IMG/VR virus record: IMGVR_UViG_2660238126_000001
Location: 1-11,469 of that record
Strand: one strand, 5' to 3'
From: a virus
Taxonomy: Duplodnaviria > Heunggongvirae > Uroviricota > Caudoviricetes
Length of the DNA: 11,469 nt
Numbering within the stretch: position 1 is the stretch's first letter; each line of letters opens with the position of its first letter. Under the pieces are notes generated by a model that made no database searches, had not been told where the DNA came from, and was given only the letters and a program-made list of their open reading frames with translations. The position numbers were made by a program, and so were the translations under genes. Of this stretch, positions 466-11,469 are shown in pieces.

Positions 466-675
<210 letters not shown>

Positions 676-1519: not shown

Positions 1520-2077
1520 TTGGCAAAAATAGATGATTATCAGCCAAGCCAAGTAGAAGTTGATAAAGTACTTTATTGTAAAAAAATAGTTAACTTTTCT
1601 GGCGTTAAATGGAAACAGAAACCAAGTCGCTCTGATATGTGGCTACAAGCTCATATCATCCCCTTGGATGAGGATTGTATACCTATACAAGGGCTAAAGT
1701 TTGAACTGAAATGGAAACCAGATCAGGATTCAGAACCTGATGACCCGATTTCTTACCCTAAAATAAATATTATTGCTTTCTATCATAACAAGAGGGTTTT
1801 CGCGGTAGATACCTATCACTTTGACAAACACACGAATAGTTACAAGGTCGATCATCCGAAGTACCAAGATATCATTTACGGTGCTCATTACCATGTATAC
1901 TATGAAGAAGCTGGATACTATAGTGATAGAATAGCGTTTCCAATCGAAGATGACATAAACCCAGATGACCTGGTAGGGTATTGGAATTACTTCTGTAAAC
2001 ATCTGAACATAACTTACTCTGGGAGAATACCTTTACCGCTTGAAGATGAGTCGGGGCAAATGGGGTTTGGAATATGA
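1520..2077 (+). CDS. Hypothetical protein A (185 aa), first gene of a two-gene cassette in the rexA position; acidic and rich in Tyr, His and Trp
   Basis: 558-nt ORF starting at TTG 1520, three codons after an in-frame TAA, with agggcgg about 10 nt upstream; the first in-frame ATG is codon 40 at 1637. Co-oriented with cI and visibly more AT-rich than the flanks. No transmembrane segment or recognisable catalytic motif by eye. Confidence 0.7.
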   Translation: MAKIDDYQPSQVEVDKVLYCKKIVNFSGVKWKQKPSRSDMWLQAHIIPLDEDCIPIQGLKFELKWKPDQDSEPDDPISYPKINIIAFYHNKRVFAVDTYHFDKHTNSYKVDHPKYQDIIYGAHYHVYYEEAGYYSDRIAFPIEDDINPDDLVGYWNYFCKHLNITYSGRIPLPLEDESGQMGFGI

Positions 2078-2826
2078 TGTGCTCAACAGTGATCTCACAA
2101 CTAGGTTTCGAATGCCATCCAATAGGCAAGACCTTGAGAATTATCAGTCCATTCACTTACTGTGATGATGGAGAGCATGTCGGTGCCTTTATCCGTGAAG
2201 TCAATGGTAGGTATTTAGTTAGTGACAGATGCGATGCCTTAATGAATATGGAGGCAAGAGGGATCTCGCTTACCAAAAAACGACTTGATGAGATACGACA
2301 ATTACTGCTTAAAGAAGGCGCAGAACTCAATGCTCGAGGAGAAATCATTGCTTGGGCAACAGAAAAGGATGTCGGTGCGATTACATCGAACATAATTAGA
2401 GCTGGTATACTCGCATCAACTTTGTCGTTAGACTGGTATCAGCCAGTTCAAGCTGAAAAGTTTGAAAGTATGGTTATTGATTATCTATATCACACAGAGC
2501 TTAGAGAGGCACTTTCTCTTCGTGAAAACGTATATGGCTTGAGTGGACATCAAATTACCGTCCCTGTAACAATAAAAACCGACATACCTAAATACGTTTT
2601 TACATCAAGCGTGAAACACGGAGGAAGCTGGAATAGTGCTTACTCATTGCTTGGGAAACTAATTGATCTTAAAGCTTCAAGTGAGGAGTATAACAACAGA
2701 TTTGTTGTTATAGACAGCGAAGCAATTGGTGATCAAATGCAACAACTCTCCTTACTCTTCCATGAATCAAGCCAAGTTCTACCATTCTCCAAAAGAGAGA
2801 CTTGGATTAAGAGACTTGCAGCATAA
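2074..2826 (+). CDS. Hypothetical protein B (250 aa), second gene of the cassette in the rexB position; soluble, with an N-terminal Cys/His cluster
   Basis: ATG 2074 overlaps the TGA stop of gene A (aatATGAtg), indicating translational coupling. 753-nt ORF ending at TAA 2824..2826, immediately followed by an intrinsic terminator. No lambda counterpart recognised. Confidence 0.8.
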   Translation: MMCSTVISQLGFECHPIGKTLRIISPFTYCDDGEHVGAFIREVNGRYLVSDRCDALMNMEARGISLTKKRLDEIRQLLLKEGAELNARGEIIAWATEKDVGAITSNIIRAGILASTLSLDWYQPVQAEKFESMVIDYLYHTELREALSLRENVYGLSGHQITVPVTIKTDIPKYVFTSSVKHGGSWNSAYSLLGKLIDLKASSEEYNNRFVVIDSEAIGDQMQQLSLLFHESSQVLPFSKRETWIKRLAA

Positions 2827-3582: not shown

Positions 3583-4137
3583 TTACTTAGATATTGGCCT
3601 TGGCTTTATCTCAATATTATATGGATCATAGCTGGCAACTAATTCAGTCCAGTAAATATCCTCAATAGGGAATAATATATGCTTCCCGTTCCATCGGGAA
3701 AAAGTTTTGTTCAACACACCAAGCTCAATCAACTCACTAATGTATGGGAATTGTTTTGATGTAACCACATACTTCCTGCCTTCATTAAGGGCTGCGCACA
3801 AAACCATAGATTGCTCTTCTGTAAGGTTTTGAATTACCGATCGCACTTTATCGTTTTGCATCTTAATGCGTTTTCTTAGCTTAAATCGCTTATATCTGGC
3901 GCTGGCAATAGCTGATAATCGATGCACATTAATTGCTAGCGAAAATGCAAGAGCAAAGACGAAAACATGCCACACATGAGGAATACCGATTCTCTCATTA
4001 ACATATTCAGGCCAGTTATCTGGGCTTAAAAGCAGAAGTCCAACCCAGATAACGATCATATACATGGTTCTCTCCAGAGGTTCATTACTGAACACTCGTC
4101 CGAGAATAACGAGTGGATCCATTTCTATACTCATCAA
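3583..4137 (-). CDS. sieB: Superinfection exclusion protein B (184 aa), membrane protein
   Basis: Translation MMSIEMDPLVILGRVFSNEPLERTMYMIVIWVGLLLLSPDNWPEY... matches lambda SieB from memory. It has hydrophobic N-terminal helices and is convergent with N. Confidence 0.92.
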   Translation of the reverse strand: MMSIEMDPLVILGRVFSNEPLERTMYMIVIWVGLLLLSPDNWPEYVNERIGIPHVWHVFVFALAFSLAINVHRLSAIASARYKRFKLRKRIKMQNDKVRSVIQNLTEEQSMVLCAALNEGRKYVVTSKQFPYISELIELGVLNKTFSRWNGKHILFPIEDIYWTELVASYDPYNIEIKPRPISK

Positions 4138-8004: not shown

Positions 8005-8226
8005 ATGGCAGACATAATTGATTCAGCATCAGAAATTGAAGAATTACAGCGCAACACAGCAATAAAAATGCGCCGCCTGAACCACCAGGCTATATCTGCC
8101 ACTCATTGTTGTGAGTGTGGCGATCCGATAGATGAACGAAGACGACTGGCCGTTCAGGGTTGTCGGACTTGTGCAAGTTGCCAGGAGGATCTGGAACTTA
8201 TCAGTAAACAGAGAGGTTCGAAGTGA
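8005..8226 (+). CDS. DksA/TraR-family C4 zinc-finger protein (73 aa), lambda orf73-like
   Basis: CxxC...CxxC spacing in ...HCCECGDPIDERRRLAVQGCRTCASCQEDLE..., typical of TraR-type proteins. Length and position match lambda orf73 as I recall it. Confidence 0.8.
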   Translation: MADIIDSASEIEELQRNTAIKMRRLNHQAISATHCCECGDPIDERRRLAVQGCRTCASCQEDLELISKQRGSK

Positions 8227-8772: not shown

Positions 8773-9387
8773 ATGAAAAAATCAATACTAATTTTAGGGC
8801 TTACGTTAATTGTCTCATCTCAAATACCATCGGCAATGGCAAAAAATGAATCAAGACTTTGGGTTGTTGTTGATCGAACGGAAAGACATACCTGCCCTTC
8901 AAGTAAATGTGGAGTGGCTGGGAAACTATTTTTCAGGGAAGGCGTAGATTTTCTAGAAAAAAAAGGTGAATGGGTTCGTATAACTGAGCCATATTCAGCC
9001 TCATGTGTGGGAGGGGAAAGCGAATATATTAAAGAAGGTAATAAATCCTGCACAAGAAAAAACGGAATCGTCAATGGCAAGTTTTCAGAATGGGTTAAAC
9101 TTAGTGATCTTAGCAGTGAAAGGCCATCAGATCCTGCTGAAAATGCGAGCGGAGATGATACTTTAATCAAAGGATCTGATGACTACCGTATATACAAAAA
9201 AGAGTTTTCTTCGGCAGCTAGGAAGTTAATAAACGAAGGGGTCTGCACGGAAAGCGACTTTAAGGAAATCGGAGGGTGGATGGCATCAAGCAATAAGGGG
9301 AAAAACATCTATTTCACATATTGCGGAGGAATGACGTTGTCGAACAGAATATACCTAGACGTTAAAAGTGGAAAGACTTTTAGATAA
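8773..9387 (+). CDS. Secreted/periplasmic protein (204 aa) with a Sec signal peptide and an SH3b-like N-terminal region; AT-rich moron
   Basis: Signal peptide MKKSILILGLTLIVSSQIPSAMA followed by KNE. SH3b-like pattern in RLWVVVDRTERHTCPSSKCGVAGKLFFREGVDFLEKKGEWVRITEP. Seven Cys in the mature part. RBS aaggaaa precedes the ATG. Not part of lambda. Confidence 0.75.
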   Translation: MKKSILILGLTLIVSSQIPSAMAKNESRLWVVVDRTERHTCPSSKCGVAGKLFFREGVDFLEKKGEWVRITEPYSASCVGGESEYIKEGNKSCTRKNGIVNGKFSEWVKLSDLSSERPSDPAENASGDDTLIKGSDDYRIYKKEFSSAARKLINEGVCTESDFKEIGGWMASSNKGKNIYFTYCGGMTLSNRIYLDVKSGKTFR

Positions 9388-9458
9388 TATGATATTACCA
9401 ATGACAGTATTAATTTAATGCCTCCATAGAATTATCTCTAGGAAGTATGTATAAGAAA

Positions 9459-9492
9459 AGCCCGCACAATGAGCTGCTGCGGGCTTTGTGTT
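9459..9492 (+). terminator. Intrinsic terminator after the secreted-protein gene
   Basis: agcccgca-caatgagctgc-tgcgggct hairpin followed by ttgtgttatt. Confidence 0.6.
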
Positions 9493-9740
9493 ATTCGCCA
9501 TATTTTATGAAGCAAATACGACACTATAGATAATTAAGCGTTGCTGGTTGTCGATTCCTCACTCACTCCTGTTGATGGCTCTCTTCTTGTATGTGCCATT
9601 GAAGGGTAATATCGAGTAAAAAGATACCGGAAGTATCCGCGCCGCCATGATTGTCTTTCTCCTAATGCAGGAAAAGCAGAATGGCTAAATCATCAGCAGA
9701 GCGCAAAGTCGATCAGAGAGCCAAGCAAGCATCATCCGGT

Positions 9741-10019
9741 ATGCGTAAGCTGGAGCTTGTACTTGATGCTCAGGAAATTGAAATGCTGGATCGTAACTGA
9801 GCCACGCGCCGCTTCAGGCATGCGCCTTACGAGTTTGGTGAGTACATCGCGTTACTGAGCCGCCAGGATGATGCACGTGTGCGCTGGCGTATAAAATCGA
9901 TCAGCAGAAAACGTTGCGATAAGTGCGGCGAGAGAGTTCCTGTTAATTCATGCCCGTGTAATGGTGACTCACAATGCTGGGTGACCAAAGGCTGGCACGA
10001 AACAAAATTAATGATATAA
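9741..10019 (+). pseudogene. ea8.5: Ea8.5-like homeodomain/zinc-ribbon protein interrupted by an in-frame TGA at 9798..9800
   Basis: The frame reads MRKLELVLDAQEIEMLDRN*ATRRFRHAPYEFGEYIALLSRQDDARVRWRIKSISRKRCDKCGERVPVNSCPCNGDSQCWVTKGWHETKLMI*. The 72-codon segment after the TGA has no in-frame ATG and carries the Cys cluster. Total length (92 codons) and position match lambda Ea8.5. Confidence 0.5.
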
Positions 10020-10025
10020 ATCTCT

Positions 10026-10037
10026 GTGACATGTCAC
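10026..10037. promoter_or_regulatory. Perfect 12-bp palindrome gtgacatgtcac immediately 5' of the RBS of the 142-aa ORF
   Basis: Exact inverted repeat, followed by ggagg (10038..10042) and ATG 10048. Candidate operator or RNA hairpin. Confidence 0.4.
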
Positions 10038-10047
10038 GGAGGCGGCA

Positions 10048-10476
10048 ATGAAATTAGACCAGCAATATCTAAAAGATCTACTTATCGCATTCGAAAAAAC
10101 TCATGGCCCTGACACGATGCTTAGTGAACTAGAGGATAATGGCTTTAATAGATATGACCAAAATTTTATTTTCCATATGCGATTATTATGCGACTACGAA
10201 TTAATAGTCAGGGTTGATGGAAAACCTGGGTTCGGTCATATAATGTCCAACGAGTTAGGGGAAGGTGTTGGATATAGTTGGATCGAAGTACCACTGAGGT
10301 TGACAGCAAGAGGGCATGATTTTATTGCTGACTTGCGTCAAAAGGAGGTCTGGCAAACTATAAAAACAAACTTTAAGGATGAGGGAATTAGTACACTAAT
10401 AAGTGTTTCAAAATCACTAGCAAAAGGCTTTGCAAGGAAAAAGATAAAAGATATTACAGGAATAGATATTGAATAA
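10048..10476 (+). CDS. Hypothetical cytoplasmic protein (142 aa); AT-rich moron inserted between the ea8.5 and orf55 homologues
   Basis: Strong RBS ggagg 5 nt upstream of the ATG. Translation MKLDQQYLKDLLIAFEKTHGPDTMLSELEDNGFNRYDQNFIFHMRLLCDYELIVRVDG.... Lambda has only a short spacer here as I recall. Confidence 0.8.
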   Translation: MKLDQQYLKDLLIAFEKTHGPDTMLSELEDNGFNRYDQNFIFHMRLLCDYELIVRVDGKPGFGHIMSNELGEGVGYSWIEVPLRLTARGHDFIADLRQKEVWQTIKTNFKDEGISTLISVSKSLAKGFARKKIKDITGIDIE

Positions 10477-10558: not shown

Positions 10559-10726
10559 ATGCACTTCCGAGTCACAGGTGAATGGAATGGAGAACCATTC
10601 AACAGAGTTATCGAAGCAGAGAACATCAATGACTGCTATGACCACTGGATGATATGGGCCCAGATAGCACATGCAGACATAACCAATATTCGAATTGAAG
10701 AACTGAAAGAACACCAAGCCGCCTGA
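10559..10726 (+). CDS. Small ORF, lambda orf55-like (55 aa)
   Basis: Translation MHFRVTGEWNGEPFNRVIEAENINDCYDHWMIWAQIAHADITNIRIEELKEHQAA*, in the position between ea8.5 and xis. Below the length cut-off of the ORF track. Confidence 0.65.
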   Translation: MHFRVTGEWNGEPFNRVIEAENINDCYDHWMIWAQIAHADITNIRIEELKEHQAA

Positions 10727-10765: not shown

Positions 10766-10984
10766 ATGTACTTGACACTTCAGGAGTGGAACGCTCGCCA
10801 GCGACGCCCAAGAAGCCTTGAAACAGTTCGTCGATGGGTGCGCGAATGCAGGATATTCCCTCCTCCGGTTAAGGATGGAAGAGAATATCTGTTCCACGAA
10901 TCAGCGGTAAAGGTTGACTTAAATCGACCAGTAACAGGTAGCCTTTTGAAGAGGATCAGAAATGGGAAGAAGGCGAAGTCATGA
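10766..10984 (+). CDS. xis: Excisionase Xis (72 aa)
   Basis: Translation MYLTLQEWNARQRRPRSLETVRRWVRECRIFPPPVKDGREYLFHESAVKVDLNRPVTGSLLKRIRNGKKAKS matches lambda Xis from memory. Confidence 0.96.
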   Translation: MYLTLQEWNARQRRPRSLETVRRWVRECRIFPPPVKDGREYLFHESAVKVDLNRPVTGSLLKRIRNGKKAKS

Positions 10985-11175
10985 GCGCCGGGATTTACCC
11001 CCTAACCTTTATATAAGAAACAATGGATATTACTGCTACAGGGACCCAAGGACGGGTAAAGAGTTTGGATTAGGCCGAGACAGGCGAATCGCAATCACTG
11101 AAGCTATACAGGCCAACATTGAGTTATTTTCAGGACACAAACACAAGCCTCTGACAGCGAGNNNCANNAGNGNTN
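10962..11175 (+). pseudogene. int: Integrase Int, N-terminal arm-binding region only (about 71 codons); lambda-like sequence stops after a patch of ambiguous bases
   Basis: Translation MGRRRSHERRDLPPNLYIRNNGYYCYRDPRTGKEFGLGRDRRIAITEAIQANIELFSGHKHKPLTA matches lambda Int from memory and overlaps the xis 3' end. The defined bases within 11161..11175 are consistent with int, but from 11176 the sequence no longer encodes Int and stops at 11211..11213. Confidence 0.8.
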
Positions 11176-11469
11176 ATGTACGAGCTAAATGTTACTCCGT
11201 TAAAATAAATTAGTAACAAACGCCCTATAACGTACTGAAAATTATGCCTGTGATCTAGCGCCAAAAATCAGTATTTCGGCGTGAACTCGCAAAATATTAA
11301 CGATTCAGCCGTGATAGTGGGATAAACACCTTAGAACGCCGGATAAAGACTGATAATTGTCTTCGACGGTCGGGTAAAACGAGACATCGCCCCGGCACGA
11401 ATCACTACTTAACACGGATGGCTTCAGCCCCCGTTTTCACACGAAGGTCGATGCGGCGACCAAATCGTT

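Follow-up and report, generated by a model that had tools for sequence, protein, structure and literature searches.

A probable inherited nonsense pseudogene of the phrog_536 accessory gene family in the exo-xis region of a lambda-like Escherichia coli prophage

The window (the whole stretch of DNA analysed here, 11,469 nt) is the early-left arm of a lambda-like E. coli prophage, in the orientation opposite to that of the standard lambda map. Its landmarks are as follows.

466-666, minus strand: cro
767-1480: cI
plus strand: homologues of gam, bet and exo
8005-8226, plus strand: TraR/Orf73-like gene
10559-10726, plus strand: orf55
10766-10984, plus strand: xis
10962 onward, plus strand: start of int

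The accessory exo-xis (b) region of this arm contains a 112-codon frame at 9681..10019 (+), on the same strand as exo, xis and int, that is broken at codon 40 by a TGA at 9798..9800, as read from the sequence. The parts of this frame, together with the features that precede it, are given below.

9541..9606, plus strand: relic of an S24-peptidase/HumD (UmuD-like) gene, a 22-codon fragment, recognised from the annotation of matching positions
9623..9688, plus strand: 3' end of a NinX/DUF2591 gene, whose TAA overlaps the ATG at 9681, from 90-97% matches to the ends of phage NinX genes
9669..9672, plus strand: AGGA, Shine-Dalgarno-like, 8 nt 5' of the ATG at 9681, read directly from the sequence
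9681..10019, plus strand: the interrupted gene as a whole (112 codons plus TAA), read as a pseudogene and delimited by end-to-end alignment with intact homologues and by its phrog_536 match
9681, plus strand: start ATG, read from the sequence
9681..9797, plus strand: translatable N-terminal fragment of 39 codons, comprising a basic arm, a putative beta-strand and part of the predicted helix A
9741, plus strand: second Met codon in the same frame, read from the sequence
9798..9800, plus strand: premature TGA at codon 40; ancestral TGT (Cys), changed by T to A at 9800, from the homologue alignment
9801..10016, plus strand: 72 codons beyond the TGA, covering the remaining part of the predicted ribbon-helix-helix and the putative zinc module, severed from translation
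9879..10019, plus strand: mechanical 46-codon open reading frame starting with GTG, from Val67 onward and covering the zinc module only, from the list of open reading frames
9915..9977, plus strand: Cys cluster C79-x2-C82 ... C91-x-C93 ... C99, read from the sequence
9919..9919, plus strand: second lesion, G to A, giving Gly80Asp in the CxxC knuckle, from comparison with E. coli ATCC 8739
10017..10019, plus strand: terminal TAA, read from the sequence

A sequence-only reading of this stretch had pointed to an in-frame TGA followed by 72 open codons, and both are confirmed in the sequence. The CxxC...CxC cluster that it placed in the 72-codon stretch is likewise present, as C79/C82 and C91/C93, with C99 in addition. 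The same reading found no ATG in the downstream stretch; there is one in frame, at codon 111. It also proposed a start at Met 9741 or 9681 and a protein of about 92 residues. Both Met codons exist, and the true start is the one at 9681, not the one at 9741: the gene has 112 codons counted from 9681, its homologues are nearly all 112 aa long, and invariant positions lie within residues 1-20. The apparent size match to Ea8.5 at about 92 aa arose because the wrong start codon had been picked.

With Cys restored at codon 40, the encoded protein matches the PHROG profile phrog_536 with an E-value of 2e-48 over residues 1-111 of 112. Megablast against phage genomes identified intact 339-nt counterparts in phiV10 (PhiV10p55), TL-2011b (gp20) and Chlobot, and in a gapless alignment over the 339 nt codon 40 is TGT in all three, as opposed to TGA in the window. 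Because the interrupted frame aligns end to end with intact 339-nt genes, it is the remnant of a gene and not a chance open frame. PhiV10p55 (YP_512310), gp20 of TL-2011b (YP_007001971) and the epsilon15 gp49-like 112-aa 'transcriptional regulator' all belong to phrog_536, and the product name in RefSeq for the phiV10 and TL-2011b genes is also 'transcriptional regulator'. The phiV10 and TL-2011b proteins share at least 84% identity with the window gene over its full length, and their genes have the same length of 339 nt and the same Cys pattern; they differ in having an intact TGT, whereas in the window copy codon 40 is TGA and G80D is added. The setting differs as well: in these podoviruses the gene is the last early gene ahead of the terminase genes, whereas the window copy belongs to the exo-xis region of a lambdoid prophage.

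When 5.8 billion protein clusters were searched, 299 homologues came back, spread over Escherichia, Salmonella, Citrobacter, Klebsiella, Enterobacter and Edwardsiella; among the 120 of these that were listed, nearly every one has a length of exactly 112 aa. An exhaustive profile search gave 177 clusters at 50% identity. In two alignments, one of 26 and one of 40 sequences, M1, K3, E7, K9, Q12, R13, Q16, G20, N39, C40, C79, C82, C91 and C93 are invariant. The sequence-only reading had also considered that homologues might normally start downstream of the stop, which is inconsistent with the 112-aa length and with the invariant M1, K3, E7, K9, Q12, R13, Q16 and G20. In the wider family (59 full-length relatives), no sequence departs from C79 or C82, 58 have C99 and 40 have Cys40; the 19 that lack Cys40, all distant relatives, have R, A, M or I at that position. 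At the nucleotide level, codon 40 is TGT in 107 of the 125 pattern matches across the loci examined. The window copy has the length of the family and the full profile match, and lacks an open frame carrying C40, C79, G80, C82 and C99; we therefore class it as a pseudogene member of phrog_536, because codon 40 is TGA and residue 80 is Asp. Searches of Pfam, NCBIfam and PADLOC gave nothing significant for the gene, and a literature search with the locus tags of the family and its PHROG identifier found no papers. phrog_536 is a widespread, uncharacterised small accessory protein of enterobacterial temperate phages.

The gene had previously been labelled Ea8.5-like, with a suggested comparison to lambda ea8.5. 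We detected no homology between the two, which fall into different Pfam and PHROG families. BLASTP of the window protein against lambda Ea8.5 gave E = 24, and hhalign of the family alignment against Ea8.5 gave a probability of 0.3%. The window gene has no match to PF20735 even at E <= 1, and its PHROG is phrog_536, not phrog_6325; lambda Ea8.5, by comparison, reaches 164 bits on PF20735 and 181 on phrog_6325. A passage in PMC8614690, citing Kwan et al. 2013, describes Ea8.5 as having a hybrid homeodomain/zinc-finger fold (PDB 2M7A), and the same passage says that it is thought to be a transcription factor. The resemblance of the two proteins is of a general kind only: both are small and encoded between exo and xis, and each combines a helical part at the N terminus with a C-terminal Cys cluster, a zinc site in Ea8.5 and a putative one in the window gene. 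By contrast, Ea8.5 has 93 aa against 112 aa for the window gene, and its N-terminal fold is of the homeodomain type, as opposed to the ribbon-helix-helix predicted for the window gene. The label is thus corrected on two counts: the gene is not ea8.5, and it has 112 codons, not 92.

A second candidate relationship, to the DksA/TraR C4 zinc fingers (PF01258), was also rejected. Residues 50-110 gave a weak profile match, below significance (E about 0.06), to TraR and YbiI, and the matched stretch includes a long helix followed by 'CxxCGxxIP'. The window gene has no PF01258 match, and its cysteines are spaced C79-x2-C82-x8-C91-x-C93-x5-C99, unlike the C-x2-C-x17-C-x2-C of the DksA/TraR C4 fingers (F TraR, lambda Orf73, YbiI). 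The real TraR/Orf73 homologue of the window lies elsewhere, at 8005-8226 (+); it is an intact 73-aa TraR/DksA-type zinc-finger protein (PF01258, phrog_54) and the counterpart of lambda Orf73, for which reprogramming of the host RNA polymerase has been demonstrated (PMC9239242).

We modelled the intact protein with AlphaFold2. A shallow alignment of close homologues gave a pLDDT of 59.8 and was unusable; the deeper alignment that replaced it gave a model with a mean pLDDT of 88.6, for which Foldseek found nothing significant in the PDB. The model suggests a candidate ribbon-helix-helix domain of the Arc/MetJ/CopG type in the N-terminal part (about residues 20-74) and, behind it, a Cys-rich zinc module at the C-terminal end, predicted to consist of C79, C82, C91/93 and C99, and we infer that the intact protein is a small DNA-binding regulator. 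In the model, the stop at codon 40 lies within helix A of the predicted ribbon-helix-helix domain, and because the TGA cuts this helix, the 39-residue product would be unable to form the predicted fold. The proposed course of events is that the gene would presumably be transcribed from pL, that a single transversion would have turned TGT (Cys) at codon 40 into TGA, and that translation from the ATG at 9681 would halt after 39 residues, within the first helix, so that no DNA-binding dimer and no zinc module would be made. With neither of these made, the gene would be a pseudogene.

The sequence immediately upstream contains other decayed genes. At the position of the S24-peptidase/HumD relic, PGAP annotates a 'DNA repair protein, incomplete' in ATCC 8739, and related strains have an 'S24 family peptidase' or HumD. 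In TL-2011b, the start codon of the phrog_536 gene overlaps the stop codon of the upstream DUF2591/NinX gene (ATGGCTAA). The relics at 9541-9688 mark a recombination joint between nin-region and b-region modules, and the dispensability of an accessory gene at this place fits with such a mosaic joint containing other decayed genes.

To ask how widely the TGA is found, we used an allele-specific 55-mer with which every 28-nt megablast seed was forced across base 9800. The TGA version was found in 64 of 5,426 complete E. coli genomes and the TGT version in 353, about 80 of these at >=95% identity and hence in the same sublineage; the TGA accounts for about 45% of the copies of its sublineage in complete E. 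coli genomes. The allele is also present in 18 IMG/VR contigs and on three diverged haplotype backgrounds, and the independently sequenced complete genomes that carry it include three ATCC 8739 assemblies and several NCTC strains. Contigs with the exact 39-aa products numbered 804 (the product of the window), 110, 832 and 63, and the two commonest 39-aa products occur in 1,453 (that of the window) and 1,383 blocks of the assembly collection. Across 428 nt (9620..10047), the window differs from ATCC 8739 at one position, 9919, which is not in the TGA. RefSeq ECOLC_RS26175 of ATCC 8739 is the same gene with the same TGA, described by PGAP as 'hypothetical protein; internal stop', and has the same neighbours as in the window: the gene for a 204-aa protein, a DUF2513 gene, orf55, xis and int. 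The two loci differ in that ATCC 8739 has Gly80, an IS1 upstream in the prophage and an intact int, whereas the window has Asp80. The counterpart in E. coli O68:H12 strain 97.3 is likewise marked as pseudo by PGAP, with an 'internal stop'.

These counts bear on whether the stop exists at all. The window comes from a draft-quality record with N's near 11162-11175, and the ambiguous bases and a suspicious joint inside int are what would lend some credit to a sequencing or assembly error at 9800. However, the identical TGA recurs in independently sequenced complete genomes, among them the three ATCC 8739 assemblies and the NCTC strains, and on the three haplotype backgrounds. Because the same TGA recurs across the genome census, we exclude such an error, which would now be scarcely credible. 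The wrong base call that the sequence-only reading had offered as one of three explanations is therefore rejected, given the 64 complete genomes, the 18 IMG/VR contigs, thousands of assemblies and the internal stop in RefSeq. The pseudogene is already flagged by public annotation, and the TGA is an ordinary allele.

We next consider the history of this allele. The 40 TGA copies represent 9 haplotypes in three groups. A synonymous CGC at codon 43 is common to all TGA haplotypes and absent from 60 intact haplotypes, and this shared linked CGC suggests that the allele arose once and later recombined; in their 3' half the group C haplotypes match an intact haplotype (L083). The TGA probably arose once, in a sublineage with 'RRFR' at residues 43-46. 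The window haplotype, with Asp80, recurs elsewhere (L132, GCA_964056415.1), and D80 is absent from all 60 intact haplotypes, Gly80 being nearly invariant in the family. In the 'phages' collection, no isolated phage is closer to the window than the intact Chlobot (97.2%); since window-like (type A/B) TGA copies would outrank Chlobot, they are absent from isolated phages in this collection. The TGA allele was seen only in resident prophages, many of which have IS insertions nearby.

Selection on the gene has been relaxed since the stop arose. Nei-Gojobori pN/pS is 1.01 among the TGA haplotypes, compared with 0.29 among close relatives with intact haplotypes, 0.16 among more distant ones and 0.23 over all intact pairs, and the changes specific to the TGA lineage comprise 10 nonsynonymous (A2T, K3R, A5S, A10V, E37D, R47H, A48S, R66H, G80D, R85K) and 2 synonymous substitutions, a ratio that does not depart from the neutral expectation of 77% nonsynonymous (p = 1.0) and differs from the 43% of intact genes (one-sided p = 0.006); these statistics are rough, being based on 9 haplotypes, on non-independent pairwise comparisons and on substitutions counted by hand, and all agree in direction. 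K3R, R66H and G80D strike invariant or nearly invariant residues, and changes in the zinc module among TGA copies include G80D, G80R and C99Y. One copy (L127; IMGVR_UViG_2617270985_000006, about 3669-3790, minus strand) shows, besides the TGA, a deletion of 1 nt in codon 31 (GCTCAGGAA to GCTC-GGAA), which is either a second inactivating lesion or an error in a draft sequence. Of the 40 TGA copies examined, 39 keep the 72 downstream codons open. The open frame is uninformative, because about 7 substitutions in that stretch would leave it free of further stops with a probability of about 0.66. Both halves of the gene have been drifting neutrally since the TGA arose, gaining damage such as G80D. 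The locus combines a premature stop, in a frame that aligns over its full length, with relaxed selection and later lesions across 9 haplotypes.

The pattern of drift also bears on whether the TGA might be decoded. UGA is the leakiest stop codon in E. coli, and low-level decoding by near-cognate tRNA-Trp, leaky or programmed, would make the allele a variant with attenuated expression that is itself under selection, and not a null. The abundance of the allele (64 complete genomes, about 45% of the sublineage) is compatible with this, as are the open downstream frame in 39 of 40 copies and the acceptance of residues other than Cys at position 40 in distant relatives; since Cys40 is replaced in 19 of 59 of these relatives, a read-through product bearing Trp might still fold. 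However, the 81 nt around and after the UGA (9790-9870) fold no better than shuffled sequence (z = +0.62), giving no stimulatory structure 3' of the stop. The sole local hairpin has 4 bp, and its equivalent can form in TGT alleles too, where the loop alone is different (A to G at 9820). Scanning 9300-10200 against Rfam at E <= 10 yielded nothing beyond chance or terminator-like matches, far under gathering scores, and ARAGORN found no tRNA in the window, so the window contains no suppressor tRNA. Moreover, pN/pS is about 1, invariant positions are substituted on both sides of the stop, one copy has the added frameshift, and the open downstream frame is expected by chance. The read-through that had been suggested from the sequence alone thus finds no support, in either the RNA structure after the stop or the evolution of the two halves, and we regard a selected, attenuated variant as improbable. 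Basal leakiness of the UGA is possible, and nothing points to selection for leakiness. We consider it very improbable that the TGA allele is alive in the further sense of a UGA partially decoded, as Trp or less plausibly as selenocysteine, to give an attenuated dose of the regulator that favours stable lysogeny.

Selenoprotein genes are classically recognised by a UGA that lines up with Cys in homologues, and the UGA of the window is placed in just this way, opposite the Cys codon of its homologues, where it might encode selenocysteine. SelB, however, needs a specific hairpin starting about 11 nt past the UGA, and there is no SECIS-like hairpin after the UGA here. Only three selenoproteins are known in E. 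coli, all of them formate dehydrogenases. Beyond the stop, the sequence evolves neutrally. The lack of a SECIS and this neutral drift outweigh the UGA/Cys signature, and selenocysteine recoding can be all but dismissed.

Another possibility is that the TGA split the gene in two, yielding a 39-aa peptide from the N-terminal part and, by re-initiation at the GTG at 9879, a zinc-module protein of 46 aa. An AGGA at 9866-9869 precedes this GTG by 9 nt, a 46-aa open reading frame in Chlobot has been named 'transcriptional regulator', a phage protein of identical sequence exists in a metagenome-assembled genome, and the N-terminal fragment has a family of its own, phrog_34005, whose 40 positions match the 39-codon fragment. 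By contrast, the 39-aa piece would end inside the predicted helix A and would be without helix B; GTG 9879 is the codon of the conserved Val67 and is also present in intact genes; gene callers left the 46-aa frame uncalled in 20 of 20 genome loci; and selection is relaxed in both halves, with G80D, G80R and C99Y in the zinc module. Chlobot, moreover, has an intact 112-codon gene, with TGT at codon 40 and a frame open over 339 nt, and the 46-aa call is for this reason an annotation artefact. We conclude that the 46-codon frame at 9879..10019 is probably not a gene, and that two separate products are a very unlikely outcome.

Note that the deposited annotation of Chlobot (PP925838; L001 in our set) misses the intact 112-codon gene at 2562-2900 of that genome. 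It has instead an out-of-frame 'UmuD-like protein' at 2422-2739 and the 46-aa 'transcriptional regulator' at 2760-2900. Such a mis-split of an intact gene can spread into protein-family databases.

Taken with the alternatives above, the evidence favours inactivation by a nonsense mutation, the first of the explanations put forward in the sequence-only reading: the ancestral codon is TGT, the TGA is inherited, and selection after it is relaxed. We put the probability that 9681..10019 is an inherited TGT-to-TGA nonsense pseudogene of the phrog_536 accessory gene, in the exo-xis region of a lambda-like prophage, at roughly 0.88. The TGA allele is unusually frequent for a dead gene, and frequency alone does not discriminate between hitch-hiking in successful prophages and selection for a null or attenuated allele. 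With null and intact phrog_536 alleles both common in nature, the family offers a ready natural knock-out for studies of function.

Several other parts of the window deserve mention. The stretch at 8773-9492 (+) holds the gene for a 204-aa protein with a signal-peptide/lipoprotein-like N-terminus (phrog_8310, weak SH3_3) and, after it, a GC-rich hairpin with a T-run at about 9456-9492, an arrangement that resembles a self-contained moron within the pL operon. Weak Rfam matches to Thr_leader and Esr41 at 9401-9494 probably reflect only this terminator. At the other end of the arm, scattered N's at 11162-11175 break int after about codon 66, and the sequence at 11176-11469 is not int: it is E. 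coli DNA found in 5,425 of 5,426 complete genomes, at a median of 2 places per genome. The stretch at 11162-11469 has the look of a joint made in assembly or of a prophage cut short at int. Directly after cI, at the position occupied by rexA/rexB in lambda, are two overlapping genes (1520-2826, plus strand) encoding proteins of 185 aa (phrog_2017, weak DUF6978) and 250 aa (DUF1828, phrog_1960). The pair matches the PADLOC candidate system PDC-M24 (M24A, E 5e-4; M24B, E 6e-10), suggesting that 1520-2826 may be a prophage-encoded defence cassette at the rex position.
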